From positions 215,399-279,398 of the forward strand of contig CAYPYS010000001.1 of the NCBI GenBank assembly GCA_964415355.1: DNA of 64,000 nucleotides. The letters run 5' to 3'. The translations under genes were made by a program, and so were the position numbers. Every line of letters begins with the position of its first letter. The stretch's first letter is position 1. Below are positions 5,249 through 61,300 of this stretch, piece after piece. Source of the DNA: an uncultured Planctomycetia bacterium (lineage in GTDB: Bacteria; Omnitrophota; Gorgyraeia; Gorgyraeales; Gorgyraeaceae). The notes beneath the pieces were generated by a model. That model did no database searches and had not been told where the DNA came from. It worked only from the letters and a program-made list of their open reading frames with translations.

Positions 5249-5285
5249 TAACTTTACATTTTAACATTGTTGAAATGTAAAGTTA
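5249..5285. repeat. PIE copy 3 (TAACTTTACATTTTAACATTGTTGAAATGTAAAGTTA)
   Basis: Read directly. The RND gene stop (5283-5285) lies in its right end. The coiled-coil gene start (5223) is 25 nt beyond its left end. Confidence 0.9.
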
Positions 5286-17168: not shown

Positions 17169-17205
17169 TAACTTTACACTTTAACGTTGTTGAAATGTAA
17201 AGTTA
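17169..17205. repeat. PIE copy 8 (TAACTTTACACTTTAACGTTGTTGAAATGTAAAGTTA)
   Basis: Read directly. The stop of ORF 17203.. (TAA) lies in its right end. Confidence 0.9.
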
Positions 17206-26344: not shown

Positions 26345-26381
26345 TAAGTTTACACTTTAACGTTGTTGAAATGTAAACTTA
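26345..26381. repeat. PIE copy 13 (TAAGTTTACACTTTAACGTTGTTGAAATGTAAACTTA)
   Basis: Read directly. A family-C element follows immediately. Confidence 0.9.
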
Positions 26382-26383
26382 CG

Positions 26384-26420
26384 TGTCATTGCAAGGCACG
26401 AAGCGCCAAAGCAATCTCAC
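26384..26420. repeat. Family-C element GTCATTGCAAGGCACGAAGCGCCAAAGCAATCTCAC (only intergenic copy)
   Basis: Read directly. It shares the GTCATTGC.AG...GAAGCAATCTC layout with the in-ORF copies at 34697, 49777 and 62722. Confidence 0.7.
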
Positions 26421-28212: not shown

Positions 28213-28264
28213 TTTCCCTCTCTTCGTAGGGGAGACTTAAGTCTCCCCTACGAAGAGAGGGAAA
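28213..28264. repeat. 52-bp perfect palindrome TTTCCCTCTCTTCGTAGGGGAGAC-TTAA-GTCTCCCCTACGAAGAGAGGGAAA (family D)
   Basis: Read directly. It is preceded by a T-run (TTTTTTTTATTTTTTTT at 28172-28190) and lies just 3' of the giant ORF. Confidence 0.85.
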
Positions 28265-28266
28265 GC

Positions 28267-28305
28267 TTAAGCATACACTTCAACATTGTTGAAGTGTATA
28301 CTTAA
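28267..28305. repeat. PIE copy 14, GCATAC/GTATAC variant (TTAAGCATACACTTCAACATTGTTGAAGTGTATACTTAA)
   Basis: Read directly. The giant-ORF stop TAA (28302-28304) lies in its right end. Confidence 0.9.
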
Positions 28306-37300: not shown

Positions 37301-40300
37301 TAGAGGCCTCAGTGAGAGAAATTGATGCTCTATCCACAGTAATTTTCTGAATTTCGCCATCAACTTCAAGATATAATCCGCGTACTGGCCCGTTTAGTTG
37401 CTCAGCGCTCCTGCTTCCCTCCTGAACAATGATTACATCTGCCTTAGCATGATAAAACATAGCTATGTTCAGAGCACCGATTGGGTAAACACCTATAATA
37501 GTCCCGGTGCTACTATTTCCGGCCTGCTGTTTCTGCTCAGTAAAATAACCGAACAACTCATTGCTACTAAGCATAACCCCAGTAATAAAGCCTTGGCCGA
37601 GCCCAAAGAAATCCCCACCAGCCACGGATGAGGTGATTCCCAGCGAAGCCCACCCGGGCCATATTGCTATTCTTAAAACCTGCATAAGTGCAAAAATTAC
37701 AAAAGCTATCCAAAGAATATGCTCAATGATCTTTAAAGCACTGTTAATCTTCTGAAGACGAATTATCCTTTGAGACCTCGGTAGAACTATAGCTCCTCCG
37801 TCTGGCATTTCAATCAATCTGGACTGCACTTCATTCCAAAATTCCTTATACACATAAGCCCCGAACCTGATTCTTGCAATGCTAAATACAAAGAAACACA
37901 ACCCCAACCCTTGTCCTAATTCGGATGAAAGACCAAAAAACCCTCCTGCTTCTCGCCCTAACAGCCTTAGAAAAACAAATTTTCCTATGATTATAAATAA
38001 GTCCGCTATATTCGTCCAACCTCCAAAACCAAAGGGGATATAGTCACGATTATATTTATATACAATTTCTTCCCAGAAATTTGAAAACCAACTGCCTAAC
38101 ATTAAACCAAATAAAGCTAGATAAAAATTTGAAAATAATCCAAAGATTTGACTCTGGATAGCAATTTTCCATATAAATACGCCTAAGGTTATAAATACTA
38201 GTGCTGCGCTTAAAAAAGTCCTTAAAGGATTTTCTAAACGTGGGGTTTTAATTCCCCAGTCTTTCTTATCTGCTATGTAGCCAGCTACCCTCGCTATCAG
38301 AAACCCGACCAAAACAGACATGCCAATAACAATAAGCGGTGGTGCAGTCTCCCATAAAAAGTAGTGTAACTTTTCAAGCATATCAAATCCTGTCCTTGAA
38401 GACAGGTTTAATCTTGAAATCAAGGACAGGTTGCCAGCTGAAATAGCAAATGGTACAAGCAACAAGGCGTTGTTTTTCTGTTTTAAACTAAAAAAGATAT
38501 AATAAAAAAGCGAGACTAACATACTGGTGGCCAAGATTAAACCCCATATCAGCAACGTAGAATCAGATTGTATGGCTACCCATGTAACAGCCCATCGATA
38601 ATATAACCAATACGTCACTAGCATAGGCCCGACTGTAAGTATTAGTGCTCGCGCCATAGTTTTGCCTCGATCAGGGAAGAAAGAATTCTCAGACCAAAAA
38701 GCTCGTCTAAGCGACTTCGCTGCTATGGCCGTAGGTATAAAAACTGCTATGATGAGCCAACCAGCCATGGGAAGAGACAATAAACCTCTATAAATTGCTA
38801 AGGTAAAAGCCGTCAAACTAAACACGACCAAGGTATGTTTCTTACGCTGCGTATTATTAAACCACGCTTCATCATGTTCGCACCATCCGCTATAAGCTTG
38901 AATTTTTTGTCCCGAAATTTGTAACCATCTCCATGAAATTGTCAACATAAGGACAATTATTGGCAAGACAAGGATAACTAGTAGGTCAAATTCTGACAAG
39001 CCATATACCGCGCCATACAAAATCGTACCGGTCCCGAGCATCAAGATAACCAGGATAAAGATCAATACAAAAGATCTCCAGCCTAAAGATATCCAGCGCG
39101 GGACCTTTGATGCGTATTGTTCGTAATCACTTCCAAACTTATCTTTTAAATAACTCTCTTCTTTTATCGACTCTTTTTTAACAGACGAGCTAGTTTGAAG
39201 CGCCACGAATAATCCTGATATTAACGCGATTATCCAGGTAAGGGTCTTAGCATCCATTGGATAGAATAGCGTTGCAATAATAGAGGTTATAAAGCTAGAG
39301 AAAATTATAACATAACTAATGTATATGGGATTTCTGGTCCATCTGTAAGGGCCTTTGGCAACAAGGGCATCGGGGTAAATTTCACAACGAGTAATGATAA
39401 GATGTGGATCTATATATAGGTGTGCGTAATTGAGGAAAATACAGCTGGCAACTAAAATGCTTGCCGGCCAAAGCAAGATAGGATCGATAAGACCTAGAAT
39501 AAAGGCAAAAATTACAGAAACAAGCAACTGTCTTTGTTCGCACTTAAGATACCGCCATAGACGTATAAGGGCATAAGCAGAAATACCTAAAATGACAGCA
39601 ATCAGTTTTATGTTCACCTCTGGCGGTGGCTGATTCTCGACAAAGTGCCGTAAATTTTCAAGGATATTGAGCTGACTAAATCTGTCATTGCGAGCAATGA
39701 CAGATGGAGACACCTTAGCAAACAAGGAAACGCCTAACATGAAGCTTGAATTATCCTGATCGGATATGAGGGTGATTGCCGCAAGATTTGCCAGAGGGTG
39801 AGAGGCAATAAGGCTATGCTGTATGCGCAATGGTTCAGGATCAGCTTTAATAAGTCCCAGCTTTATAGCTAGTTCTACAGTCTCAAGACGTTTTTGAAGT
39901 CTGATAGTAGGTTTCACAGCCCGTCCCAAATGAGATAGTCCTAGATGTTCTCTTGCATTACTAAAGGTTATGCTAACATTGGACTGCGGGATAGATATCC
40001 TCTTGGAAATCTCTTTATTTGTCAGCCCTTGAGCCATAAGGGTTAATATTTCTTTTTCCCTATCAGTAAGCTGAGACATCTTTACAAGCTTTTTAAGTGG
40101 CTCAGGATCAGCTTTAATAAGTCCCAGCTTTATAGCTTCTTCAACAGTCTCAAGACGTTTTTTAAGTCGTGCAAGCAAGTTTCCCCATCCCAAAGGAGAT
40201 AGCCCTAGATGTTCCCTAGCACTTCGATAGAGTGCATTAATATTTGGCACTGTAGTAGAAAGCTTCTCAGCGATCTCTTCAATTGTCAATCCTTGAGCCA

Positions 40301-43300
40301 TAAGAATCAATATCTCTTTTTCTCTATCAGTAAGCTGAGACATCTTTACAAGCTTTTTAAGTGGCTCTGGGTCAGCTTTAATAAGTCCCAGCTTTATAGC
40401 CCGATTAACAGTCTCAAGACGTTTTTTAAGTCGCGTAGCCAAACTCTTACCATGTCCCAAAAGAGGTAGTCCTAGATGTCCTCTGGCGCCTCGATAGCGT
40501 GCATTAATATTTGGCACTGTAGTAGAAAGTTTCTCAGCGATATCTTCGATTGTCAATCCTTGAGCCATAAGGATCAATACCTCTTTTTGCCTCTCACTTA
40601 GACGAGGTGTATTGATAAGCTCTCTAAGTGATTTAGGATCAGCTTCAATAAGTCCCAGTTTTATAGCCCGCTCTACAGTCTCAAGATATTTTCTAAGCTG
40701 CATAACCAAGGTCTTGCCACGTCCCAAAGGAGGCAATCCTAAATGTTTTCTGGCATTACTAAAGGTTATGCTAACATTGGACTGAGAAATAGAAAATTTC
40801 TCAGCGATCTCTTCGATTATCAGTCCTTGAGCCATAAGAATCAATATCTCTTTTTCTCTATCAGTAAGCTGAGACATCTTTGCAAGCTTTCTAAGTGGCT
40901 CAGGATCAGCTTTAATAAGTCCCAGCTTTATAGCCCGCTCCACAGTCTCAAGACGTTTTTTAAGCCTGATAACATGGCTCACGCTTTTTCCTAAATGAGA
41001 TAGCCCTAGATGTTCTCTGGCGCGTTGATAGTGTTCATGAATAGTGTCTATATTAATAGCGATTTCTTCAGCGATCCTTTTATTCGTCAGTCCTTGAGCC
41101 ATAAAAGTTAATACCTCTTTTTCCCTCTTACTTAGACGAGGTGTATTGATAAGCTCTCTAAGTGATTTAGGATCAGCTTCAATAAGTCCCAGTTTTATAG
41201 CCCGCTCTACAGTCTCAAGATATTTTCTAAGCTGCATAACCAAGGTCTTGCCACGTCCCAAAGGAGGCAATCCTAAATGTTTTCTGGCATTACTAAAGGT
41301 TATGCTAACATTGGACTGAGAAATAGAAAGTTTCTCAGCAATTTCTTTATTCCTCAGCCCTTGAGCCATAAGGGCTAATACCTCTTTTTCCCTGTCAGTA
41401 AGCTGAGACATCTTTACAAGCTTTCTAAGTGGTTCAGGGTCAGCTTTAATAAGTCCCAGCTTTATAGCTAGTTCTACAGTCTCAAGACGTTTTTTAAGCC
41501 TGGTAGCAGGTCTAACAGCTGGTCCCAAATGATCTAGCCCCAGATGTTTTCTGGCGTTTCCATAGATTACATGAATATTGGAAGAGGAAACAAGAGAGAA
41601 AGTCTTAGCAATCTCTTTATCTGTTAACCCTTGAGCCATAAGGATCAATACCTCTTTCTCTCTATCAGTAAGCTGAGACATCTTTACAAGCTTTCTAAGT
41701 GGTTCAGGGTCAGCTTCAATAAGTCCCAGCTTTATAGCCCGCTCTACAGTCTCAAGACGTTTTTTAAGTTGTACAAGCAAGTTCCCGCGTCCAAAATGAG
41801 TCCGCCCTAAAAGATGTTTGTGGGTATTCCGGAAGATTTGACCAACATTACCCTTGGTAATAGAAAGCTCTTTAGCGATCTCTTCATCCCTCAGCCCTTG
41901 AGCCATAAGGGTCAAGATCTCTTTTCTTCTTGGAGACAAGTAAGGTGGATTTATAATTTGCCTCAATAGCCTGACATCAGCATCAATCAATCCGCGCTCT
42001 ATGGCTTGGTTTAATCCATAATCAGTTGAATAGGCTCTGTCCAGGGCCTGCCTAAACGCGATATCTATATCCTGGGTATGTTCAAGGCCTGATCGCTGTA
42101 AGGCCTTTACCCATATGAGAAATGCGTACAAAAACTCTCCGCCTTTTAGTTCTTCAAATGCATCCGTAACATCCCCATAGCTTTGTCCTATAAGTCTGCC
42201 CTTCCACGCCTTCATCAAGTTAACTACATCTTCTTCCATCTCCTCTGTTTTTATTGAAAATATAATCGCATTCCTCAGCTTATTAATTAACTGATCACTC
42301 AATGCTTTCCAGCGCTGGCGCTTCATGTGCCAGAAATCATCCGAACAATCAAGAATCTCATCCCAGCCGTCAAACCTAACAAATGCCCTACAAAATAGCC
42401 TGAGAAGCGATTCTGTTTCAGTATCGGCGGAAAGAATTCCCTCAGGCACAGAACTTGAACTAACAACAAGATCCGCATATTGGTCGTGTCCGTCCATTGG
42501 CAGATCTTTAACTATCTGTTCCGGAAAGGCTACGGCCACCTTAAAGGCCTCCGGCATCTCTTCAAGAAGCCTGTCATAATATCCGCCTCCTCTTCCAAGG
42601 CGCTTCCCCTCCCTTGTGAACAGAAGCCCTGGGACAAGGATCAGGTCAGGGGCCCCACAAAACAACTCGCACGATTCTTTGGGCTGCAAAATGTCATACG
42701 GACCGGTCTCCAGATTTTCTCCAAGATTCTGTATTATACGAAATAGGAGAGCATGCGTTTCATCTTCTTTATCTACGCAGGGAAGGGCTACGGTTTTACC
42801 CTGTTCGAGAGCTTCTTCAATTAAGGGGACAATTTGTGGTTCAAGAGGCATAGGATAATACAGAAATACCACTTTTGTTTTCTCCCAGCGCTGCTGAAAC
42901 AACTGGTGTTCTTCCAAGGCTTTAAAAAGAGATTCGTTTCTTTGAATTGCTGCTCTTTTATCGAGCTTTCTTAAGCGCTTCTTCGCCATCGCCCTCAGCT
43001 GCTCTTTTTGCTCGTGAATATTAAGTTTCTTTCCTTTTTTAATAGCTATTACTACCGCTATGATTGCAAATGAAGAAACTGCCTGCGAGTGTAAGACGAA
43101 CTGCTTTAAAAAACGCAATGATATAAAGTCATAGAATTTCAGCAAAATAAATACAAAAATAATCCCCAATATTATACGAAAGATAAGATTCCTAATAGTA
43201 TTTCCTTGAGCAACCACTATATCGTCTTCCTGGTAACCTGCTTTCTTAAGATTTTCAACCGCTCGACCTTTTATCCTCTTCATTTCTCTTAAACCCAATG

Positions 43301-46300
43301 CGCTTTTGATGATAAGAGCCGCGCTCAAAATTAGAAATATTGAAAAAGCTATCGATATAAATAGAAATCTTCTATATATATCCTGAATAAAAACGGCCCG
43401 GGCAAGCCCAAAGAAATCCCCACCAGCCACGCCCCGTACGAAATCTCCGATTTGCGTACGGGGCACGGTTGAAGCGATCCCCAAAGTAGCCCACCCGGGC
43501 ACAAATACCTTTGTCATTGCGAGGCCAAAGAGCGCAGTGACTCTTGTAGAAGTTTTCTTATCCGCAATGAGGCCACCTTTAATATCTTTATAAGAGAAAG
43601 CAGCGGCAGCCGCCGCTACAACTCTATTTCCCACCTCAAGTTTCCTTAAAATAGATGACACATTATTCATGGCAGGCGCTCTTCCTTCTCCAATGCCTAA
43701 TACTTCTGTTATCTCCCTATTGCTTAGGCCTTTCATTACTAATTGCAAGACTTCTTTTTCTCTGCCGCTGAGTTCATCAAAACCTTTCTCGCGATAAAAA
43801 GCATCATCTAACCTTATCAGCCCTTTTCTAATGGCTATTACCACTGCTTCTATTTTATTTGCTGCTTGTAGTTTTTTAAGAATAGGCTTTCTGTGTTTTA
43901 ACCCAAATGACTTATATCCTAGAGCAAGCGCCATTTCCTTATCAGAAAGGCCTTGCGCAAGAAGCAAAAGAATTATTCCTTGAAACACTGTCAACCTTGT
44001 TTTAAAAATCTCTTCGGTCGCAATCGAAAGGTTCCCGACAGATATCGTCTCAGCTTGACTACTAGCTCTCCCATCTGAATCCACATGCCTGCTAACATCA
44101 GGGAGAAATAAAACCTCGGCTACGCTGCAAGAAATGCGGCATAAGAAACCAATGCCCAAAGGAGTCCTGATGTATTTCCATATATAAGAAAGAAGTTGCG
44201 TTAGTTCATCTATAGCCTCTTGACATGGATTTAAATAAAGCTCCTCAACCGAAATCGAACTGAGCCCATAGGCCTTTGTAGCGGCATTTTTAAACCGTTT
44301 TATGTTATCCAGAACTTTTTGCAATAATGAGCTTATGCACGCTAATTGCAGCGGCGACTCTTTTATCTCTGTTTCTATAAATAATAAACAATCTAATAAA
44401 CTATTTAAAAGTTCCTTTGTTTCCCATAGGGTTTTCTTTTTTAATGTCCTCCTTCCGCGCCCGGATCCATTCTCATCCACGAATTCAAATAAGGCATTGA
44501 TTTTTATTCTTGCGATTGAAAAAGCAGTAATGATCTTGGTAAAATGAGGCCCCGCGCTCCCAGGAATTCCCGAAATATCATATGCTTTTACCCAACCAGG
44601 CGCAGGAGACCTTAAAAACTCCTCTGTTGCGTCGATCCATTTTCTATAGTAATCAAAAGCAGCATCCTTCACCAGGTCTATAGAGCGTGACGATAGAGGA
44701 AAATCTTTTTCTGTCAATACATTGCCTCTTTTAAAGTATCTTATGCGGATCGCATCTTCGCCCCAATATAAATCAACCACCTTCTCCGAAGTAGGCAGCC
44801 AGACTAAGACAGCATATTTTGTCACCCCGCCTATAAATAAACGACGCAGAGCCAAACCTTCCCTTAAAATAACCTGGGCAGATCTGGCTTCTGAATCTTT
44901 CACCGTAGCCTTTGTGCTCAAGAAACGAATTTTAGCCCCATTAATCCATATGCTTCTATGTGTTTCGCCGATAAAAGTCTCTTCCAAAACTGCAGGATAT
45001 GCCCTATCTAAATCCATATCAAGAATCAGGCCAACAAGATAATCTTGCAGTTTCATGCTATATTTATACACAGGCACCTCTTCCTTAATACCAATAATGC
45101 CCATATCGCGGCCATCTACGATAACATGCCTTTTCCCATTTTTAAAAGGGAACTCTAGACTACAAACCAGCTCGCAAACATCTTCCTTATACGCAACAAT
45201 CTCAGCCGATACTAGCTGCTTTGCTCCTGCCTTTTTATATACAAGTTTCCAAATTACCTTAAACCTTTCCATTCCCGGAAGAGAAAGCATATTGGAAGGC
45301 GCGACCCTTAAACACAAGCCCTCTAAGCCCGCACGTCCTCTTGCATCAAGGTCAGCTTCCTGATAGCCGATTAACCCCTCTTCCAAAAGCGATGGCACGC
45401 TTGCGATAGCCGGAGCAAATGCCATTGAAGCCAAAAATGGAACTACATTTCCTCTTATAGCCTCCCAGAATACAATACACCCATAGACTAACAAAGACGT
45501 CATGAGTAAGAAAAGCACAAGAAATAGCCAGCCTCTATACTTAAGCTTGCTAATATAGGCCTTATAGGCCTTGCCTTCTGGTGTTTTATGCGCTCCTAAA
45601 AATAAAATAGCTATAAATTCCGGGTATAGCCTGCCCAATAACGACAATAAACCAAGCATGCTAAACCAGGCCACAGCTATTCCAGCTACCCCCCATGCTG
45701 CCTGAAGCGCCAGGGTATATGGTAAAATAAATATTGATATTAAAAACGTAAGGAAATAGCTTCCAACCCCCCAATATAAAACAGCAAATGCAAAATGTTC
45801 CAATCTCCCATGCCTAAACATACGAATTCCAAACGATATAATATAAAAAATTAAAATTGCAAGCAAAATCATAGTAAACCAAATTCCCGGTTTGTCAAAA
45901 AGCGCGATCAATTTATCTATATCCGGATCCGGCGGGCCGTTTTCCCATAGAGAATAACGCAGGATTTCCTGGATGCTGGAGAATGAAACCCACAATGCCG
46001 CCAGAGAAAAATTTAAATTCGAACCTGATGAGTCTTGCTTGCCAATGCGGTCGTCAACTGACGTAGTCAGTATTTCCAAACATTCATCTTTAAGCATAAG
46101 TTTGGTTAAAGATGGTATTATTTTCTCAAAATCGCTTATAATGCGATTTGCCGTATCTACCTGTTCATCTGTAGCTACTCTCTCTCCATCAAACTCCCAA
46201 TGCTCTACTCCCCATGACCAATATCTTAAGAATACCCAGAAGTATATAATGACAAAAATCGGCTGGATAGCAACACTGGGTTCATAGTCTGAAAATATAG

Positions 46301-49300
46301 GTATCCATATACCGTTAAAATGTGATTTCAATCTAAAATAATCTAAAGAACAAAAACTGCTTATTGTGCTGTGACTTCTGCTCCCACCCCTAACCCATTG
46401 CTCAAGAAGCCAATCAGCCCCGTCTTCCTGCGCTTCGACTGACAGATACACTCGTATTGGCTCATCCTTCCTATTTCTAAACTCTAACCCACATGCCATA
46501 TCTTTTTCTGCTTCTCTACTAAGATAGTTTTCGATTTGCTTTAAAGCTACATCGGAATCGCCAACAATACCAAGCTTTTCCTTTAGTGCGCGCATCAGAC
46601 CTCTTGCAACTATGGGTTCATATGAGTAAAAGAAAAGTTTTGCTACATGCGCCATGAACTCTGATTCTAAAGTTTCCTCAAAAATATCAAAAGGATAAAT
46701 TTGTAAACCTATCTCATCAAATACACGCGTCAATATGCCATTCTTGACTTCAGCAAAGCCTCTTTCGATCCTTATTTCTTTTCTACCCTGCCATAGTATT
46801 TGACCGGCTAAGAAAAAGCCACCATTTGGACCTGTTGCAGCATTCTCAATGACGCCGTCAGGATGTTCCTCTAATACTCGCCCGGGCATTACAAATGGAT
46901 ACGCTTTCACAAACCTGCCTTCTACGCGCCTTGCCAACCCATCCACTATCTCTATCTTCGCGCCTGACCATAAAGCATTCCTAGAATCAGGACCATTATG
47001 ATAAAGATGAGTGCCAACTGCGCCATATATATCGGTACACCTATAATCCTCGAATACTATAATGCCATTATTTACTTTTATATTATGGGCCCACGCCAGG
47101 GCGCCTACGCCCCCTCTTCCAGTTTTAACCTCATTATTCGAATCTGAAGAGATCCCTGTTATCACGCAATAGCCTTTTTTGCCATACCTATCGAGAAAAT
47201 CTCCTGGTACCATGCCTGGAAAGGCATTTATAAAAGTACCCTCTACCAGCTTCCCATCCTCTATTACCGCATCCACAAATAGCGCATTTTTTCCTTCTGG
47301 GCCAATATCGCGGATCAATTCTCCTGTTGCATTATAGACCTTTGTTACACGCCCTTCTTTATCATCTGAGTTTACCTTTTCTACTCGCAGCATTAGTCCT
47401 TCCTCATTCTCATGTCCTTTCCACTTATCCCACCATGGCTTTACTAAATAAAGGCCTCCTCTATTATTCAACTTTGCATCGAGCACCACACAATCAGGGT
47501 AACGTTCAAATAAATCTCCTGGCACACGAGGAGGAAACGTCCCTACAAAAGTACCTCCGACTAACTGACCGTCTACTATAGTGCCTCCATCATATATAGC
47601 ATTTATTCCTTCACCTCTGCGATAACTGCGGATATCTCCTTCGTCTCCTTCTAGCATTACCATCGATATAAACATTAAACAAAATTCCTGACTAGGCAAC
47701 AATCCTTGCGTCATTGTGAGTGCCGTAAAAATAATGCCCAAGAGCAAGGTGAGATTATTTTGGTCGAATTCAGGAGGTTTATTAAATAACGCCATGATTA
47801 CTATGGCGACAGAGGCTATTAGCAGAAATACATCTGCCAGGTTCGCCACATCAAAACCTAGAATAACTATCCAATTTACAACATAGCCTGTAGTTAATTT
47901 TTCTGTAATGTTACCCAAAGTGCCTCCTGCTAAGATACCGAGCATAGCTAGCATAAAAGGCCAGGCTTTTGTATTTTTCCAGTGCAAGAGAAACCATAGG
48001 ATAAGAGAGAACATTAGAGTAGTTAGAATAATAGTAAAAAATACATTCTCATTATCTTTTATAACTTGTATATGCGTAAGCTGAATAACTTGTCCAAATA
48101 ATGGTGTCTTAAGAAGGCTTTTAATGATATCTACATAAGAAAGCCCCTGCTCTGATAGCACATCAAGCTGTGCAGCCGTAAGTGCAACGGGAATATTCAA
48201 CTTAACCCACAGCTTAGTGCCAATATCTATCGCAAAGGCAAGGCATGCTGCAATAAACGCCATCAACCTGCGTCTATGCTGTTTAAGCCATGACCATAGA
48301 AATGGAAAGATAATAATAGGAGCTTGAGAAGCAAACCTTACGCTGGACCTGAACATCGCGATAGGGTTAAAATTTATACGTGAACTATGCAAGAAAACTA
48401 TTTCTCCTCCCACAGATTGATATAATATAAAACATCCTTTAAAGAATAAGGAAAACATGAGACTCAAAATCCCGCACCAAAAAATAAACTTCCATTGAAG
48501 CCCAGTATTTTCCATTCCTGATATATCCAAAGAATATGCCTGTCTGTCCAGTGCATCTGTAAACTGTGCCAGCATTCTAGAGCACTCTGAATATGACGCA
48601 GCCATACCAAACCAGCCCAATACAATTATGTAGATACCCTGCGCTGCCTGAATAGCTAAATTTTGCGGCAATATAAGGCTCGATACAAAATATACCGCTA
48701 AATAACTCAAAGCGCTTTCTAATAAAGTCACGATCAAGAATCGCCGGAGTGACCAGCCTTGCTTTGCCCCGCGAATCCCAGAGAATACAATATAAGTAAT
48801 TAAAGTTGCAAGTAAACCCATAGTAAACCAAACTTCTATGTTGTCAAAAAGTCTGAATTCATGCGCAACCGACAAACATTTTTCTAAGCTCCCACTTTGA
48901 CATTGTTGAAGCGCAAGCTTAATGTTATCAGATAAAAGCGCAACTGGTGCAAGAAATAGGCCATATAATGGAGCTTTCTCTTGTTTTCTTGCTGAAGCAC
49001 ACGAAAAAATTGGTCTGTCAAAGTATAATAAATACACCAGAAAAACAAAAAACCCTACTATTTCCCCGGATATCATGCCGATGAAATCCAAAGGATCTTT
49101 TACCCTGCCAGCTATCCCTCCTAGAAAGTCTTTTGACCTATAGAATTCTAACCATAAGAAAATAAAAATAAACACAACAAACAAACCTGCTAATTTTATA
49201 ACAAGCTGTAATAGCGGCCTGTTATTTTGTGAAGGCCTGTCAAAAAACAAATAACCCATTATAAAAACAATTCCAGTCAGGCCAATAGAAATCCCATAAT

Positions 49301-52300
49301 GACTCAGCCAGCCATATATTGGGTAATAATTAACGATCAATTTTAGCTCTTCTGAACCCTGGTGTCGGATAAAATTACCTATAAAGCCAATTGCCAACGA
49401 TATACAGAGGGCTATGGATAAATAAAATATGACACGCTTTTCTTCTGCATAGTTACTCTTTTGATAAAGCTTTCCGCGGATATAGATAACGAATCCTATG
49501 AACATTGCTAATCCTAACAACATCCAACCAACCGGAATCAACCCAGGATCACCGAATCTAGACTGCCAGAAGGCAAGACATGCAAAACCAGCTATAAGAA
49601 GCGCATCGACTATGCCGACTATGATCGTTACAATGCGGGATTTTTTTGAGAGGTGCAATAAGAGGAAACCAATGCCTACTACTGCGACTATTAAGAAGAA
49701 GAATCCAAGTAAAAGCGCCCAATCAGGCGGGCCATGTTGCCAGATAGAGTGATAGAAGATTTTGTGGATGCTGAATATGTCATTGCGAGTAAAGTGACGC
49801 AATCCCGTTGAGATTGCTTCGTCGCCCATAGCTCCTTGCAATGACATGCTTGTATCAACAATAGGTGCAGAGATAATAAGCAAGCCTTTGCCAGAAAAGC
49901 CACTAGGTTTGCCTGCATCCAAGGAATATACCGACATAATCCAGCACGCAAAGGCAACAAATACACCTCCGAGCATTGCTACTACATCCAATACATCATT
50001 ACTAAATACACCTTTTAGAAAAGGACCTACATCATATAGCTCATTAAGGGTGAATAAATAAATTACTCCCACAACACCTAAGCAACGCACTAACCACACA
50101 GCCCAATTATATAGTTTCAACTTCAACAAAAATCTACACAATACTTCAATAATTATAAAAAATAATATGGCGATAAAAATCGCTGAACCAAAATTAGGAA
50201 ACCAACCGTATATGGGTTTATAATGATCGATAATACCGATACAACCTAAGCCTTGAATCACGTCGCCTGCTAAGGTAATTATTAATCCTAGCATAATACC
50301 AAAAAGACTAAGCGTAATAGCATTGGCCATAATATATTTTTTATTTTTATACGAATCCTTGATAAACTCGTCGACGTAGACTATAAATTTAAACGATAAG
50401 GCCACACAAATTACGCCCATCGTTCCAACAAGAAAAAGTCCTGCATCAACTTTTATGCCTTGTACAAATATAAACGCGAACCCAATAACTAAAAGAGCTA
50501 CGTTTGTTATCCCGACTATCTTGGCCAAAGGGCTAAAGGTCTTCATAATAACGGGTAATTTTTCTTTGTCTCTTGATAGCACTTCATTAGAAATCCATAA
50601 TGCCGTCATAAAAAATAAAAGCATCAGGCCAAAATATATAAAAGTAGCTGTGTCCCTCTCCGCACAGCTAGAAACCAAAGCCACATTATCTGTATCCAAA
50701 TAAAACAAGCTTCCGGTGATCCATCCTGGCTGCGTCGCCATTGCAAACATCTTAAAGATTTCTGAAAATCCATATATCGAACCATACAAAAGCGTACCAG
50801 TCAGAATAGTCAAGCCAATAAAGATAGAGATCAATGCAAAAGACCGCCAGTGCAAAGATATCCAGGCTGGGACTTTAGAGTTATACTGGTCATAATCACT
50901 TCCAAATTCACCTTTTAAATAGTTTTCTTCTTTCGCTCCTTCTTTTTTAAATAACGAGCTTGCTTCAAGCATTCCGCATAACCCTGATATTAATGCTATT
51001 GTCCAGGCAAGAATCTTGTTAGCATCTATCAGATAGAATGCCCCTGCGGAAATAGATACTATATAGACAGAAAAGATTATAATGTAACTAATATATTTAG
51101 GATTTCTAGTCCATCTATAAGGACCTTTGGTGGCAAGTTTATTAGAGTAAATTTTATAATCAGTAAAGACAAAATGTTTATCTATATGCAGGCATGCCCA
51201 GTTGAGTAATATATAGCTAGTAATCAAAACGGCTGCTGGCAAAAGTAAAATAGGGTCAATAAAACCTACTGCAAAGGCAAAGGCTATGGAGATAATCAAC
51301 TGCCTCTGTTCGCACTTCAGATGCCGCCATAGCCGCATCAGTGCGTAAATAGAAAGAACTAAAAGTACAGCGATCAGTTTTGTGTTCGCCTCTGGCGGCG
51401 CCTGAGGCTGGACAAAGTTCCGCAAATTTTCAACGGATGGAGACACTTTGCCAAATAGACTCGTAATTGGTATAAGCATAAGCACATCGTCCCAGACATC
51501 ATCATCTGGATTCCGGCTATTATGTCCTCCGCTTGTCTCTAATTTTTTCAGGTACGCAAATGCGCTGCGCATCTGTTTTGGGGTAAATTTTATTGTGACA
51601 TCTAGATCTAATCCCCATACAGTCCGTCCCCTGCTCCAATCTTCTAAGTCGCGAAGTTCCCCATGAAGCTCTTTTCTTCGTAGTTCTGATATATATTTAA
51701 CAGCCTCTCTTATATCAGGAGAAAATATATTACGAAACATAGCAAGGCCCACAATAAAGAAAATAACGGGCCATAGATTTAAATTTGGCAGCCTTGTACC
51801 GTTTTGGAATCCGTGCGCAACCTGTCCCAAGCCCCCAACCGAAGCGAGCAAGGAAACGCCTAACATGAAGCCTGAATTATTCTGGCCGGATTTGTGATAT
51901 TGAATCAAAAGCCTGATCAAAGGAATGCTTAATAAAATAACGCTCAAAAGAAATATATCTGCCATATTTGTAGGATAAGGATCATTAATGATAGACCACA
52001 GCCACCAGTCTGTGACTGAGCCCTGAACGACAATTTCCGTTATATTGCCAAGAGCACCACCTATAGCTAATCCACCTATGATATGCCAAAACGCCTTATT
52101 TGTTATTTTTAAACTTATCCATATAGCTAAGATGCCGATCAACAAACCTCCGAATGCAGTAGAGATTTCTGAATTAGTTGCAACATGCAGATAATGCGTA
52201 ACTTGAATAGCGCCTTCAAGCAGTGATGTCTTTGGAAGGTTTTGTATAATATCTACCCTTGAAAGTCCGCTACTTACTAATTCATCTACCTGAATAGACG

Positions 52301-55300
52301 TCAATGCAACAGGAATATTCAGCTTCACCCACAGCTTAGTGCCTATATCTATTGCAAAGGCAAGGCATACTGAAATAAACATTATTAGCTTATGGTTTGG
52401 TTTTTTCAGTCGCGGCAATAGACGGACAAGGAGGAGTGCAAGAACTATCAAGGAAATAACAAAAAGAATAGTGACTGTCGTTATATGTAAGTCTAGAGGC
52501 GGTGCGTTAGGCTCGACAAATGCAATGACAGATGGAGATACCTTCAGGCCGGGTAAAGGCGCTCCATAATAAGGGGTCGTGGTCATTTTCAGGATACCCT
52601 CATAAGGCATAGATTCGTATTGTTCCATAAGGGAAAAAACTTCTTTTCTGAAGAGAGTGGAAAAATGATTCCTATAGAAACAAAAGCTCATGAAAGCGAT
52701 GCTTAAAACCATGATGAGTATATACTGCCACCCTGCCTTTTTAAGTTTCTGGGCAAAAAGCTTCAAAGAGGAAAATACCTTTCGTAGAGTGTTTTCACGG
52801 GAATAAAATGTCTCTGATTCCAATACTACGAGTAAATCTCTTTCTTTCATCCAATTAAAAATAGCATCGACCATTTCTTCGCCCTGACCGTACTCCCAAC
52901 TAATATTACATACTTCTATTATTGCTTTAAGAGTACGATAGAGCTTGCTCTCCGTAATATTGTTTAACTTACAACGTATATAAGCCCAACTAAACTCCTG
53001 GTCAAAATAAGATGATGCTATGATCTTCAATGTTTCTATCTCTATCGGCAGCAATCCCTCTAACAGCTCATGAGGGTAAAGTGATATCTCTAAATCCGGA
53101 TCCGAAATGTATGTACTAGCAGCCTTTAATATTATAAAACGTCTTTTTATCTCCTCTCTCTTCCCGCCGCCTTGATAAGCAGGTATCTCATGTCCCAGAT
53201 TTTTAAGGATATTCACGATCTCAGGAATATAATAAGTTCTTAACCCCGCCAACATTTTATCCACATCTTCGGTTACATCTTCCCCTCGTGATTTTCTCCA
53301 GTCGATAAAAACTTGCGCAACTTCTTTTCTGTCTATAAACTTTCCTAATTGCCGTAACAAGAATATCAGCTTCTCACTAAATACTTCCGGCAATACTTCC
53401 GGTAATACTTCCGGCTCCTCAGGCTCTCTAATCTCAGAATATGCTATGAAGCTTGCAGGATCCAATGATAAAGGAATTTTTTGCCCATTTTTTATTGTAA
53501 CTAAACCTCGCGCTATAATGACCAGTTGTTGATATTGCTCTCTGGGCCTGGGATATTCTTTTGCTTTTGAAAAATGAGGATTTCTAAGCAAACGCTCGAT
53601 TATCAGTTCTATTTTTCTATTCGAGATTTTTCCAATGCAAGTGCTGTTAGAGCCGTCCAGTGCATTTATAATCTGATGAAATTCAAGGATCCCACTCGCC
53701 ATGACTTTTAAAACATCCAATTGTTTAAAATCTATATTATGTTCCATCATTATTCTTAACTGAGGCGATATCTCCAGATATGGCATATAAAGCATTCTGA
53801 CGATCTCCAATATAGCAAGGCGCATATCAAGGCCGCGGCGGCTATCTCTAAGTCTGAAGATCTCGCCTTCCATCTGTCCTGATTCCTTTAGTTGTTCTAG
53901 CAAAGATCCTTTTAATTGGCTAATAGAATTTCTAATGGCACTTATTGTGCTAATAATTAAGAGGCGATCGATTTCTTCTGGTTTTTGTACTCTTATGCCA
54001 TCTGACCTCTGCTGCCATCGAATATATGAAATTGCAATTTCTGCTAAATTCTTTTGTTCTGCAAATTCTCTAATTAGAAATATCAGGCTATCTGAAAAAG
54101 GAATGCTTTCGCGCTCTAGCAGCATAGCAGAGTCTACGCCTTCTATCTTTCCGGCTTCTATAGCTGCTAGAACAGTTTCTTTGTGCACTCTACGAACTTC
54201 TGATGCCTCTAACGACCGCGGAGGAGGCACTTCCATCTTACGCCTTGCAGAATTATAGCAAACACGTACATTATTTTCACTTGTGCCCAATTTATGGGCA
54301 ATCTCCTTAGGCGACAATGCTTTAGCCAAAAGCTCTAATACTTCTTTTTCCCTAGGAGTCAGCCAATGAGTTTCTTTGCTTCTAGTATACTTAAAGAAAA
54401 AACCAAAACCTGATTTAAAAACGCGAATTCCAAATAATATAATAGAAAAAATTAAAATTGCAAGCAAACCCATAGTAAACCAAACTTCCGCGTTGTCAAA
54501 AAGTGCGAATTTAAAACTGCCTGATAATGCTGCAACCGGCGTAAGGACTAAACCATTTATATAACCTCTTCCATTATTGCTTCGTCTTGAGCTTCTGCTC
54601 TTCTCTTTTTCTGAAAGAGCCGAAAAGCCTTCTTTTTTCAGACGTGGCAAATATGCCAGAATATCAAAGAGAGCTATCATCTGTCCACACACCATGCCAA
54701 TAAAATCTAACGGATCCCTGATTGTTCCGAAAAACTGTGTCAGAAAATCCTCTGGCCTAAGAAATTCTACCCAGTAGAAAAACGCCATAAACCCAAAGAA
54801 TAAAGTGATGAATCCTAAGGAAGCTAACCATGGCAAACGCCAGCGTAGCGAAAGGCTACGTAAAACTAAATATCCTATCAAAAAAGAAGGACCAGTCCTG
54901 GCAATAGCAAGTCCATAGTGATTCAGCCAACCATATATTGGATAATAATGGATGATCGACCTTTCTTTACCCAAAACTTGTATAAAATCACCAAGATGGC
55001 CGATTGCAAATCCTAGAAAAAGGCATATAAACGAATAATATAAAACAGACATATTGTTGCTGAATTTATTCACTGTGTATCTAGCTGTCTTTGCGTATAT
55101 ATAAGTAGTAAATCCAGCACCTGATGCTGTGCCTGCCAATATCCATGCAATCTGTTCTAATCCTGGGTTGCCGAGTTGTACCTGCCAAAAAGCAAGGCCA
55201 GCAAAACCAGCTATAAGAAGCGCATCGACTATGCCGACTATGATCGTTACAAGGCGGGATTTCTTTGAGAGGTGTAACAAAAGAAGGCCAAGGCCTACTA

Positions 55301-58300
55301 CTGCGGCTATTAAGAAGAAGAATCCGAGTAATATGACTATATCCGGCGGGCCATGCTGCCATAGAGAATAACGCAATATCTTCTGGATGCTGGATATGTC
55401 ATTGCGAGCAATGACAGGCTGGGATAAGAAACCTGTAGCTGGAGCAAGAAAGAGAGGCGCGACATTGGAAAACATATTCTTATTTCTTTCTTTTTTAAAT
55501 CTCCTTCTATCTCGACGCAGAGATATTTCTAAAAATATTCTGTAACCGATGATTACAGGTATGAACAAAAACAATATGTCGAATATGTTAAAGAAAAAAT
55601 ACGGCGTGCCGCCGTTGTTCATGTATACAAAATAAACAAATTGTGCAAATATCTGGCCGGAGGGCAAAAATACCATAACCTGACTATAGATAATGCCTAT
55701 TGCGAACGGCAGTGCTATTTTATAGAGCATGAATAGTCTATTTATCCTTCGATCTCTTTCGATTGTATCTTTATATATATGCATTTTAGTGACTTTTACT
55801 ATAATATATAATGCGATGCAAAATTTTAATGGCATAAAATCATTTTTGTTATAGAAATGAACTAAATGCAGGCCTTTTATATTTAACGGAAACGGAATAG
55901 ATCCACTCATAAAATACCGGTCTATGCCTATAAGAACAAGCGTCATAATAACGATCTTTGCAAGGGTCAGCATAGATGATCTATTGGTTATATAATCCTT
56001 TATTTTTTCCCAAGATGTGGATCTACTAAATGCACTTTCAGCTTCAGCAAGGATTGAAGGATCAAGGCGCCTGGTCCCGGGCACAGGCCATTCGTATTTC
56101 TGATGATAGATCAACCTGTCATTTCCATCGCGTCTCTCTATCACTAAACATCCTGGCTCGCCACGCACGTCGATTCTATTTCCTCTCGCAGTTACTAAAG
56201 TAACTCCATCGACTATGCTGCCTATTACTCTCTTTTCTGCTACTTCCAGGCCTTCGGCATTTATTGTCTGGTTTGCGCCTATGAATAGATCCTTTTCCAT
56301 GCTAACAATTTCTTCTTTCGGGAGAATTTCTATAAATAAATCGTAAAAACGCGGCCTTAATAAAAATCCTTCTCTTGAGCGCTCAGTAGCGATATCAAAG
56401 ATCTTTATGCGGCTATTCTTGCCTTCGGGTATATAGATCGGGGCTTCGCAAGTCTCAAACCTTGCTCTATTATCATATTTCATCCTGTATTGAGCTGTCA
56501 TTTGTAATTCCTCTGCTTCAGCATGATTTTTCATTCTGCTATAACGATCGAGTCGCACGATCAAAAACTCTTGTTTTTCTGACTCAAAAACTACTGTACC
56601 GAATCCCTCCGGTAAAACGCAATAACCTAACGGAATATTCCCTGAATTATTCGGTAACCTGGGTTTCCATCCAGGCATAATAAGCTTTAAGATCCTCCGC
56701 GCCTCTAAAGCGGCCTGAAAAGTTTCCTCTCTCGTAAGTGCAGCTTTAAGCCTATTCCTTACTTCATCAATTGCCTCCCGGTCATTACCTAGCCATTTGC
56801 TTGCTGCATAAAGGATATCCCGGTCAAGCGCGCCTATTAATTTAAATGAAACATTGCTATCAAAAGTATACGCTATTAGATCTTGAAGAGCCGGGCTGTC
56901 TAACAATAGCTCCACTGCTGAGATTTCTCCTGGCTCATTTGCTGGATGCCACTCGTCGCCTATATAATAACCATCTGGCTTGCCCTCAATAACCAGGCTT
57001 TGTCCGTTGGAATAAAGCGTAACGTTAATAATGCCGCGGCCTATACGCACTCGCTCGCCTATCGCAAAAGGAAGCCCATTGCGCGCCAATCTCCATCCAT
57101 TACCAAAAGATAAGCTCTTAGGAGTCTCATATAAATGTACCTCTTTATCAGCAAAGAATTCACTAAGAACAGGGAAATCACCTGAGCAGGCCATTTTGAA
57201 CAAAGGAATGCATCTGGTCCCGGCGTTAGGATGCAATATCCCATCTGTCATGTGGGCAAAACCTTGCTCTGTAAAAGTCAATTCATAAGACTGCTGCGTA
57301 TCTGTACGGTAAAAGATTAAATCCCTGCCTGTCCAGCTTTTGAATATGCGTATATGATACCTATGGTAACTGCCTAAATAAATATCTGCATCTTTTAAGG
57401 TAATTTCCCCTGAAGAATGGTAACTTTGCTCGATCCACCAATCAGCCAAAGGAGTATCTACCGCCCAAGAAACCGGCTTTAACCTGTCCTCTGATTCATA
57501 TCCTGACAAATTATAGCCAACCGAAAAAACGCCTGCCTCTATTGACCAGCGGTTTATCATTAATATATCAACATTCTTCCTGCCACTGTTAATTATAATA
57601 ATATCCAGCATATTAGGCGTAACTGCTATATTTACATTTGTTATGTCACTAGGTGTCCTTAGGCTTACAGATCTACCGCCCAAAGAGGTATCCAAGTTAA
57701 TATCTTTCCCTCTTTCTAACCTTAAGATATAAGGACCTTTGTTTCCTCTCAAGTTTTTATCCGTAACCTCCAGTTCATTTAAAATCGATTGGCTCATTAC
57801 ATCTTCATCGAAACAACCATCTTCGATTATCAGAGAGGCAATCCCGCCCGTGTCTCTATCAAGGATGATTATAAGTTCTTTGTTATTCTGCCTTCCTCTA
57901 AGAATCTGAAGATTACGGCCCTCTAAGCATATTTTTCTGTCAGGTTGCTCCCAGATAATCTCTTCACCTAAAAGCTGATGGGCTAATATGGGATATTCCG
58001 CCTCCACACTAGTTGCTAGACATGCATTCGAGGCCATCAGGAGCTCAGGCGTCTCTTCAATGGCGCGACTAAAATCTATAGCAAACGGGATATACTGAGA
58101 ATAAGCAAGGCTTGCTTCTAATAAACGCTCTATGATTTCCTCGCTCGCATATGTAGCTGTCATATCCATAGCGATATGATCCGTCCAGCCAGCCATCATC
58201 AAAAGTTTCATGCGTCTGGCCAAAGCATATACTATTTCTTTTAATCGATCCTCACTTACTACAAGCCCTCGAAGCGCATTAGGTAGGCATCTTGAAACAG

Positions 58301-61300
58301 CCATATGCAACCGATCATCTTCTATCAAATCCCTGCCATCGCCGTTCCAGAATGCAAGCACCAGCTGGAATTTATCGCGCACTGCTTTTATCTCTTCTAA
58401 AGATATTTTGTCTCTATTTCTAGCGTGTATTCTTCTATCTATTGCTTCTACATCGCTTCTTCTATGATCCTCACCTAACATATAAATAAATATTCTCATT
58501 TCATGTGGAGTCAAAAGCTCTTCGAGACATTGTACGAATAGTTCGCCATCTTGTTTAGCAATAAGAATTTCTTCTGTGGGTCGATGACGAGGCGCGCCAA
58601 GCCATTCATGCGAATCTCCATCGCTCTCGTATACAGAAGGCGCATCAAGAGAAAAATACTGCCCCAGACTTATCACAGCTAGGGCCTGTTTCCAATCTTC
58701 TGCCTGCAACGTAAGGCTTTCCAGTTCTTGTAGTATTTCTTCATAAGCAGCATCAGGGCCTAATCTAAAAATAGCGTCTCTTAATATACCTAATACATGT
58801 CTGCCTCTTTCCCTGAAAGGGCAACGTTGAGGCTCGATAAACATACCTTCTCGGAACAAAACATAACCCACGATCGGCAATAAGCCGCCTTCTCTCCCTG
58901 CCAATATCTGCACGCCTCTTATCCCCCCGGAAAATTCTATAGGTTCTATTATTACTTCGTTACCAGCCAATTCAGTACTCACATGAACTTTTATAGCTCT
59001 GCCGTTTATCTTATATAGGTATATCGTTCCATCCGCGCCAACCCTTTTGGTTTTTCTGGTAGGGGCTTTATCGCCATTGATCTGAAACAGCACAAATTCA
59101 GACTGCCATTTGCTTTTTACCTGGATATTAAGGCCTTTATGTTCAATATAAGTTACGAAAGGTGTATTTCTATGCTCTTCTCTTTCATAAATACGAACGC
59201 TTTGTCTTATCTTATTTGCATCTATTTCCTCATTCATCAGAGTATCTTTATCATAAAAGCAAAAATCCTTGAGAGGAAAAACTGGCTCATCATGCTCATC
59301 TACTACCCAGTAACGCAAGAAATGCTGCATTTTACCTCCGACTCGCAGGACAAATGGCTCTTCATATGCCCTTTCAAGCCCATTATGTACGTGGAGATTA
59401 AGACGTCTGCCTTTAAAACCAGGCAACTCTCTTTCACCTGCAATTAAATCTACAGGCTGACTTTTCGGCATGGCCTTTCCTGTTAAGAACCAATATATCA
59501 ATTGATAATCTCTCATTGCCAATGGCCCTTTGAGCCCATCAGCCACAAATGGAATCTTTTCATTCCTCATATTAAATCGCCTGCGGCTCGCTCTCGCTTC
59601 TCCAGCAGTTAAAAACCTATCATTAGAATAAAGGACATAGCTGACAAAAGGAAATTCAGTCTCTGTGCCTTCTTCTCTGACCCAGTATATTACCCCTCGC
59701 TCGCCGTTTCCAAAGTCTGCTGCCTGACGATATGTATCTGGTAAAGACGGGTGGATAGGACACTGCACGCGAGTTCCGCTTAAAGTATATAAATACTCTT
59801 CACCGTCTCTATAAAATTTGGTTACTTCCTGTTTTCCAATAGGCCTATCTTCTCCTGTTTCAACAAAATATGATAATTCTGCTATATCCTTTCGGCTGCT
59901 ACTAAACCGCGGCCTTGCCTCAGCAACTGATTCTCCGGTCCCATCCATCACGATGCATGCGAACCAGGCTGCCTGCAAGGCAAACTGGCTCAAAAAACGC
60001 AATGATACATAGTTATAAACTTTCAGTAAAATAATCACAAAAATAATACCTAATATTATACGAATGACGAGATCTCTGGTGGTATTTGCGTGGGCTATCA
60101 GTATATCTTCTGCTTCGTAACCTGCTTTTTTAAGTTTATCTGCCGCTCTATCTTTTATCTGCTTCATCTCTATTAAGCCAGATATGCTTTTGACTATAAG
60201 ACGCACAGCTAAAATTAGAAATATTGCAGAAGCTATAGATATAAGCAGGAAGAATCCGAGCAAGACTACTATATCCGGCGGGCCATTCTGCCAGATAGAG
60301 TGATGGAGGAAGTCCTGGATATTAAGCTGAGCAAAGATGTCATTGCGAACAAGCGCATCCTTTGTCATTGCGAAACCAAAAGCAGAAGCAATACCAGCTC
60401 TCATCACAGTGCTCTTTGGAAATTCCAAAGCCTGCCTGAGTTCACTAAACTTATCACCTATAGCAACAACTATATGGTCACCTGCTTTGATATGATTCAG
60501 ACGCCTCTTTAAGCATGCTCTTACTCCGGTCTCTCTTATAAAACCCCAATCTCGTGCTAACTCTTCTAGGGTTCTATCTCTTTTCTGCGCGGCATGCGCT
60601 TCTTCTATTGCCCAGTCTAATATTGCCAGTGGCACAGCATGCATCCACTCATCCAAAAGGCCGCAGACTCCTTCAGGAAGTTCGTCAGAATCCTCAAGCG
60701 CTTCTCTTTCTTTTATGAATTCTTCTCTTATAAGTTCATACCAGTCCAGCCATTCACAAAATAATACTGTGTCTTCTTTGATTTCAGAAAGCATTTGAAC
60801 TTTATAGGGATCTTCCATTTGGTCAACCACTCTAAATAAAACCCGCAATATAAGACGCGTTCTTGTATCAACTTCTATGAGTCCCCATTCTACGGCTCGA
60901 TTCACAGTCCTGAGGCGTTCTACGAGAGCTTTAATGCGATCCAAGCGCTTGGTTATACGAGATAGACCTAAAGCTTCTCTAATATCGTTGTATGCTTGGC
61001 TAACAAATTTATGAGAAGAATAAGAAAGCCCCTCAGCTATTTCGTTATTCGTCAATCCTAGAATTATAAAAGTCAATATCTTATCTTGTGCACAAGTAAT
61101 ACGCGGAGTCTCTATAAGTTCTACAAGCGGCGTAGTGTCAACTTTTGGAATACGTTTTAGCTTTATAGCTATATTCACGGCCTTAAGGCGTTCTTCTAGA
61201 TCGGTAATGTAATCTGGGCGTTCTGTTATACGAGACAGACCTAATCGCTCTCTGGCATCGTTGTAGAATTCACTGACAGTTTTTTCAGAAATACCAAATC

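Follow-up and report, generated by a model that had tools for sequence, protein, structure and literature searches.

Old, diverged module repeats, a short island of high identity and in-frame palindromes in a giant gene of a probably Omnitrophota-like bacterium

The DNA considered here is a stretch of 64,000 nucleotides (nt), hereafter the window, from contig CAYPYS010000001.1 of an assembly deposited as an uncultured Planctomycetia bacterium. Its minus strand carries the C-terminal 11,871 codons of a giant open reading frame (ORF; 28302..64000, open at the window edge), in which several modules recur. These repeated modules are old, diverged paralogues under purifying selection. A preliminary description of the same DNA had regarded those at 48.9-55.4 kb as near-identical products of recent internal duplication, by which the gene would be growing and which would expose its assembly to collapse. 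Whole modules are in fact 55-76% identical in nucleotides and 39-64% identical in amino acids (aa), with a synonymous divergence (dS) of 0.66-1.34, whereas a recent segmental duplication would be recognized by more than 95% nt identity over the whole segment and a low dS. The account that we regard as probable is an old intragenic segmental duplication, followed by divergence, purifying selection and insertions or deletions (indels), with a ~135-nt island of high identity that likely represents a short conversion tract.

Repeats were detected by self-blastn of 28-64 kb, self-blastp in 250-aa chunks and a repeat-family search; all features of the giant gene given below lie on its coding (minus) strand. 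Module B, a membrane module of about seven to eight helices that belongs to no known family, does occur twice, as had been proposed. Copy 1 (B1, 54543..55409, aa 2837-3125) and copy 2 (B2, 48948..49790, aa 4710-4990) match at 71.5% over 558 nt by blastn (E-value 3e-71) and at 52% over ~330 aa as protein. A third, distant copy, B' (49905..50519, aa 4467-4671), stands in tandem with B2, to which it shows 27-33% aa identity. Self-comparisons likewise bore out the recurrence of the A helix, in three copies, and of the module A, LspA-like and ICMT-like pairs. The A helix, FDNxEVWFTMGLLAILIF, lies at 54399..54506 (aa 3138-3173, FDNAEVWFTMGLLAILIF...; 54416-54508 as a repeat-family match), at 48764-48856 within copy 2 of module A (48384..48857, aa 5021-5178) and at 45815-45907, with 72-86% nt identity among the three. 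The last of these is part of a third copy (45426..45986), in which the SLWENGPPD motif that starts module B (aa 5978-5997) directly adjoins module A (aa 6004-6164), the core of B being absent. The LspA-like domains are at 51843..52409 (aa 3837-4025) and 47721..48287 (aa 5211-5399), and pass the 25-bit cut-off of Pfam Peptidase_A8 (PF01252) with 31.3 and 39.5 bits, respectively. The ICMT/PEMT-like copies are at 50760..51461 (aa 4153-4386) and 38991..39728 (aa 8064-8309), and those of a further module, TMx, at 59970..60251 (aa 1223-1316) and 43086..43367 (aa 6851-6944). Twice, B, A and LspA follow one another as a collinear block that begins with a junction hairpin, and the copies are offset by 5619 nt (B to B), 5652 nt (A to A) and 4122 nt (LspA to LspA).

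Paralogy is clear for these modules, with self-blastn and self-blastp E-values of 1e-30 to 1e-86, and so is their divergence. Identity amounts to 52% aa and 65% nt for the module B pair (dS 0.91, nonsynonymous divergence (dN) 0.37), 44% and 56% for the LspA-like pair (dS 1.31, dN 0.54), 64% and 74% for the ICMT-like pair (dS 0.70, dN 0.24), 63% and 76% for TMx (dS 0.66, dN 0.21), and 39% and 55% for module A (compared over aa 5023-5178 and 6006-6164; dS 1.34, dN 0.57). Across all five pairs, dN/dS stays within 0.32-0.42, i.e. the copies evolve under purifying selection. As a yardstick, YchF, encoded downstream of the giant gene, differs from its counterpart in the closest GTDB genome (88% aa) by a dS of 0.88; the modules have comparable values, which puts the duplications at roughly the age of a split between species or genera. 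Dated by synonymous divergence, then, none of them is recent. The idea that the gene has grown by internal duplication holds as regards the paralogy of its modules and the collinear block present twice, but not as regards a recent date. Between 48.9 and 55.4 kb, self-blastn detects old, low-identity repeats alone, save for the ~135-nt island, and since the longest exact repeat there is 52 nt, the risk of assembly collapse at these modules is negligible.

The island itself is real. It spans 55201..55335 in B1, where it encodes the hairpin formed by the first two transmembrane (TM) helices, TM1-TM2 (...SKKSRLVTIIVGIVDALLIAGFA), and 49582..49716 in B2, where the longest exact run, of 52 nt, occupies 49582-49633. 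The best 135-nt window is 90% identical and the best 60 nt 98%. "Almost identical", the wording first applied to a ~135-nt stretch, is too strong, as identity is 87.5% where that stretch was initially placed; moreover, its register was shifted by 9 nt relative to the actual offset of 5619 nt, and the pairing originally proposed yields only 36% identity. Synonymous divergence drops locally to a dS of 0.27 in the island (44 codons) and 0.11 in its core (25 codons), compared with 1.12 for the rest of module B. Expressed as sites, synonymous differences affect 8/35 in the island and 2/20 in the core, vs. 109/187 elsewhere in the module. Conserved residues are encoded by identical codons in 34 of 42 cases inside the island and 70 of 118 outside (Fisher p = 0.014), and the longest run of identical codons, 19, has a permutation p of 0.008. 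At the island edge, identity in sliding windows falls from ~98% to ~55% within a few codons. The twin shadow ORFs reported on the plus strand (49498..49752 and 55129..55371) exist, but only as an antisense reading of duplicated DNA, with a low-complexity translation, and were rejected as genes.

Elsewhere, an array of eight LuxR/GerE helix-turn-helix (HTH) units of ~267 nt each (39831..41925) contains the sole repeat of this gene that is truly near-identical. Positions 40596-40795 and 41130-41329, 534 nt apart, are identical over 200 nt; the next-longest exact repeats measure 58, 55 and 52 nt. Identity is 94% (dS 0.15) for two units separated by two periods, at aa 7506 and aa 7684, 86% for those at aa 7773 and aa 7862, and 66-78% for the remaining pairs. 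Recent homogenization is confined to this array, outside the region initially flagged, and it is there, and not at 48.9-55.4 kb, that assembly collapse or short-read miscounting of copies is a real risk.

Short palindromic elements are the one unusual addition to this picture. A 37-nt palindrome, TAAsTTTACAyTTyAACrwyGTTrAArTGTAAAsTTA, is present in almost every intergenic spacer of the window. Fifteen intact copies lie in the 28.3 kb of ordinary genes (837-28304; e.g. 5249-5285, 17169-17205, 26345-26381 and 28268-28304), and the core motif has 18 matches vs. 0.18 expected. The palindrome is perfect or near-perfect, folds as a hairpin and often provides the TAA stop of the upstream gene; the canonical copy at 28268..28304 (minus strand) provides that of the giant gene. 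Stop codons are found in all six frames in 12 of the 15 copies, and in frame 1 in every copy. [quoted passage not shown] A profile search detected two further copies inside the giant ORF, a full-length one at 34731-34767 (E-value 6e-9) and a decayed one at 48893-48921 (E-value 0.03). Frame 1 is the reading frame of both, and no other copy has a mutated frame-1 stop (TGA to TGG in the former, TGA to CAA in the latter). The full-length copy belongs to an in-frame composite resembling an intergenic spacer (34696..34767), where the palindrome with its TGA to TGG change is followed by GAGATTGCTTCG...CTCGCAATGAC, the whole being translated as FNFTLQQRWNVKLEIASPLLLLAMT; in the spacer at 26345-26418, the palindrome and GAGATTGCTTCG...CTCGCAATGAC adjoin too, in reversed order. 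The decayed copy (48885..48921) is contained in 20 codons (~48858-48917) that B2 has and B1 lacks, precisely where module B meets module A. Beyond the window, the palindrome occurs at one locus (L005) of the relative with the 88% YchF match, not at more distant Omnitrophota loci, and in 63 further metagenome contig stretches, again between ORFs. No match to the giant protein was obtained by tblastn in these 63 stretches, and no orthologous giant gene was recovered.

Module starts within the ORF are marked by another motif, the 10-mer TCGCAATGAC. Its eight exact copies (34696, 39684, 43513, 49779, 55398, 60339, 60364 and 62724, minus strand) all share the orientation of the giant ORF, on its coding strand, and stand where a repeated module starts or immediately ahead of it; when one mismatch is allowed, the window contains 14 matches vs. 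3.5 expected by chance. The 10-mer is translated as RND in five copies and as AMT in three. All five RND tripeptides of the protein are encoded by CGC-AAT-GAC, of which CGC and GAC are rare codons here, an outcome with a chance of ~5e-9 given codon usage. Four of the RND copies pair with an upstream GTCATTGC arm to form hairpins. Two of these, where B2 starts and at aa 378-398, are nested and ~65-70 nt long; those at the starts of B1 and of the second ICMT-like copy (ICMT2) have 8-11-bp stems. B2 thus carries the long form, a nested ~70-nt hairpin at 49777..49847 (GTCATTGCAAG...GAAGCAATCTC...GGATTGC...CTCGCAATGAC, translated as ...SLQGAMGDEAISTGLRHFTRND) that folds at -26.8 kcal/mol (z -4.4), and B1 the minimal form, the 18-nt hairpin GTCATTGCTCGCAATGAC at 55398..55415, translated as VIARND. 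Similarly, ICMT2 holds a hairpin-containing insertion of ~39 nt (about 39660-39698) that the first ICMT-like copy lacks. A search of the whole window against Rfam at gathering thresholds gave no match, and a literature search for the hairpin sequence returned unrelated PCR primers only.

Other hairpins were noted in the spacers. GGrTTCCCGC...GCGGGAATGAC hairpins are present in three of them, 10-15 nt before start codons (8504, 13699 and 25385). A perfect hairpin with a 24-bp stem and a GGGGAGACTTAAGTCTCCCC core is located just downstream of the giant gene (28213-28264), and a similar GGGGAGCCTTAAGGCTCCCC hairpin at 2937-2978, in the spacer at 2522-2986; these two look like members of a third, terminator-like family of palindromic elements.

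Homologues of module B were found neither in a word-indexed search of 5.8 billion clusters, nor in a HMMER profile search of 1.84 billion representative proteins, nor in scans of metagenome and genome contigs. Nor did the libraries searched yield the giant protein itself, and very long proteins may therefore be absent from them. Modules B, A and TMx, scanned against Pfam under relaxed settings, showed nothing but sub-threshold noise. AlphaFold2 modeled module B, from a 3-sequence alignment, as an all-helical bundle with a predicted local distance difference test score (pLDDT) of 50.6, too poor for a fold search. In the LspA-like copies, the Asp dyad of the peptidase (GNxxD-R and FNxAD) is incomplete: alignments to 5DIR and 6RYO, structures in which these Asp residues are the catalytic ones, place GNITE in both copies, with Glu for the first Asp, while the second Asp is kept in both (NMAD and NLAD). 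Both may represent signal peptidase II modules that have diverged or are inactive. The ICMT/PEMT-like copies score 24.9 and 20.6 bits against PEMT (cut-off 25) and 21.0 and 15.5 bits against ICMT (cut-off 24), and their predicted assignment is borderline.

How these repeats arose can be pictured as follows. The ancestral unit would have been a collinear block composed of a junction hairpin, module B, the A helix with module A, and the LspA-like domain, in an order that we infer. This block would have been duplicated within the gene, and its copies would then have diverged under purifying selection. Indels would have reshaped them: ~660 aa inserted into copy 1, between A and LspA, the loss of the B core from the third copy, and the gain or loss of short palindromic elements at the junctions. 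Finally, a short gene-conversion tract between B1 and B2 would have produced the ~135-nt island, which is no sign that the duplication as a whole is recent. The view that modules B, A, LspA-like and ICMT-like were duplicated recently, in an actively expanding and collapse-prone gene, could invoke the 52-nt exact run and the 60 nt at 98% shared by B1 and B2, as well as the two HTH units of the same gene that are 94% identical with 200 exact nt. We nevertheless consider it highly improbable. Self-comparison refutes it for the flagged modules on account of their low identity and high dS, and it accords neither with the dS of 1.12 in the flanks of the island, nor with the large indels that separate the module copies, nor with the lack of any exact repeat longer than 52 nt within 48.9-55.4 kb. 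As for the island, gene conversion between the paralogous copies is favoured over selection acting on the nucleotide sequence through mRNA structure, codon choice for co-translational insertion of TM1-TM2, or an antisense ORF. Such selection, which seems unlikely to us, would fit the position of the island in the segment where the protein, too, is most conserved, the similar behaviour of the A helix, whose three copies have a dS of 0.35-0.40 vs. 1.3 for the rest of module A, and the clear nucleotide-level conservation at the TCGCAATGAC junction hairpins elsewhere in the gene. However, the antisense ORFs are of low complexity and reach well past the island, no Rfam family matches, and the sharp boundary of identity is typical of a conversion tract.

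Several points weigh against duplication within the gene followed by conversion. Gene conversion and nucleotide-level constraint are inseparable without orthologues, and the duplication is unplaceable on the species tree because no orthologue of module B was found. Since the island falls where the protein is best conserved (93-100% aa), part of its nt identity is ordinary purifying selection. The tests made on it are post hoc and of no more than moderate significance (p about 0.01). Only 41% of the gene is covered by the window. Lastly, the modules could have been separate paralogous genes before their incorporation, rather than intragenic copies. In its full form, this explanation holds that once-separate paralogues with intergenic hairpins were taken in serially by stop-codon loss. 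The two palindromes of the six-frame-stop type that lie in the ORF speak for it, as both are in frame 1 and exactly that stop is mutated, and the junction hairpins ending in AATGAC resemble those that precede start codons in intergenic spacers. We find it rather unlikely all the same: B, A and LspA are collinear twice, which favours block duplication; the 1.84 billion representative proteins include no stand-alone homologue of module B; and palindrome relics number only two in 35.7 kb. The junction palindromes hint at growth by gene fusion and palindrome-associated indels, and the palindromic elements are compatible with fossil gene boundaries left by stop-loss fusion as well as with RPE-like in-frame insertions or deletions (PMC10969869), which present data do not separate. 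We offer as a tentative possibility that giant Omnitrophota genes grow partly by absorbing their neighbours; in-ORF palindromes and the eight TCGCAATGAC hairpins would then be fossil spacers that subsequently served as substrates for module duplication, indels and conversion tracts.

The giant ORF extends further than had been supposed. The program-listed ORF (28302..63917, 11,871 aa) has its GTG "start" at 63917, which is a window-edge artefact because the frame is free of stops up to base 63998. The solute-binding protein gene adjoining the giant gene is present on four JGI metagenome contigs. On JGI contig Ga0118727_1000073 (173 kb), the gene upstream has a call of 28,837 aa that runs into the contig end and is cut there. 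Contig and window do not differ over the 9,450 nt that could be compared; of a gene that measures at least 86.5 kb (28,837 codons or more), the window therefore holds the C-terminal 41%. As a single ORF, it falls within the size range of Omnitrophota giant proteins (class definition of more than 10,000 codons, or more than 30,000 codons). Pfam identifies LuxR/GerE HTH domains (three near aa 750-1000, one at aa 3186, and the array at aa 7327-8038), the two Peptidase_A8 (LspA) domains, weak PEMT/ICMT matches and, in addition, 5-formyl-THF cyclo-ligase, PIG-L and ISN1. Crude Kyte-Doolittle hydropathy, used rather than DeepTMHMM, counts 79 TM-like hydrophobic 19-residue segments in 11.9 thousand aa (kaa), with the highest density at aa 2600-5400; numerous TM helices also characterize Omnitrophota giant proteins. 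Of two hallmarks of Omnitrophota giant proteins, a SecA DEAD-like domain and an N-terminal C39/S8 peptidase, neither was found in the C-terminal 11,871 aa, the N-terminal ~17,000 aa being outside the window.

Additional observations concern the composition of this protein. Near its C-terminus, 29550-30268 encodes a tandem array of ~7.7 units of 93 nt (31 aa), 64-70% identical, with the consensus RS..E.IL.LI..L..KGI.E..HIA.II and no Pfam match. The linker motifs GLxLxPVAxLS..K and KVSPSV recur along the polypeptide. The ISN1 (IMP-specific 5'-nucleotidase) domain is embedded at 33768-34565 (aa 9785-10049, Pfam E-value 2e-50); this family is known mainly from eukaryotes. The closest stand-alone homologues of this module have 590-650 aa and 33-34% identity, and the genomic context of one of them looks eukaryotic, with WW, Torus and Ubiq_cyt_C_chap neighbours; this context, from a single contig, is consequently uninformative on gene fusion.

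Downstream of the giant gene lie genes for PilZ, a sugar-type ATP-binding cassette (ABC) importer (SBP_bac_1 and two BPD_transp_1 genes), glycoside-hydrolase-like proteins, a porin-like protein, ROK, TolC/HlyD/AcrB, the F component and the J pseudopilin of a type II secretion system (T2SS), and YchF; T2SS and carbohydrate-import genes are thus neighbours here, as they are for Omnitrophota giant proteins. The best full-length match of YchF (88% aa) is in a metagenome-assembled genome labelled "uncultured Planctomycetia", and further matches, at 87% (partial), 70% and 69%, are in genomes labelled Candidatus Omnitrophota. The host of the giant gene is probably an Omnitrophota-like bacterium.

In size, TM content, domain mix and neighbourhood, this gene matches the published giant genes of Omnitrophota. 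Like the giant membrane proteins of the "multi-enzyme" class (West-Roberts et al. 2023; Nielsen & Lui 2026), its product is very long (at least 28.8 kaa), contains dozens of TM helices, combines many unrelated enzyme-like domains, signal-peptidase-II content included, and repeats Pfam domains within one polypeptide as old, diverged copies. T2SS and carbohydrate ABC neighbours are shared as well, together with YchF relatives labelled Candidatus Omnitrophota. Genes for T2SS and carbohydrate ABC import have been described beside giant genes of Omnitrophota (bioRxiv 10.1101/2023.11.21.568195). In 65% of the long proteins of Omnitrophota, a Pfam domain is present two or more times, and those repeats were reported as the result of old duplication and divergence, not of recent tandem expansion (bioRxiv 10.64898/2026.06.07.730766). 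Unlike the published proteins, the present one includes an orphan module B, for which no homologue was found here, and its best full-length YchF match bears the Planctomycetia label. It also has in-frame palindromes at module joints; palindromes, gene fusion and intergenic elements are not mentioned in either giant-gene paper (bioRxiv 10.1101/2023.11.21.568195; 10.64898/2026.06.07.730766).

Those palindromes recall RPEs and intragenic MITE/REP elements (PMC10969869), which are genome-abundant and also found in-frame and translated, and here, too, paralogous copies differ by the presence or absence of an element. The elements of the giant gene are nonetheless shorter, 18-70 nt vs. about 150 nt, and unlike RPEs, the canonical 37-nt element has stops in all six frames, so that a stop codon must be lost before read-through. 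Neither transposition nor target-site duplication is in evidence for them. In addition, a relic of gene fusion explains the present data equally well.

Concerted evolution through gene conversion is known among repeated modules, for example those of modular polyketide synthases and repeat-containing surface proteins. The short low-dS tract within old paralogous modules and the HTH units with their 94% identity and 200 exact nt are reminiscent of this behaviour. Homogenization is very limited here, at ~135 nt of a ~1-kb module, compared with mycolactone-type polyketide synthase genes, in which whole modules are more than 97% identical.

As old paralogues, the modules initially flagged present no assembly hazard and give no evidence of ongoing gene expansion. 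Their age and divergence agree with a recent report across 916 Omnitrophota long proteins, in which old, diverged repeats are already known as the rule; only the palindromes and junctions have some novelty. Stop-lost palindromes and junction hairpins could offer a concrete way to read from the sequence how genes of 30-150 kaa come about, whether by fusion or by duplication. Should they prove general among giant genes, they could reveal sites of protein processing or of mRNA structure and, if the fusion reading is true, the module joints would be readable footprints of the construction of giant genes.

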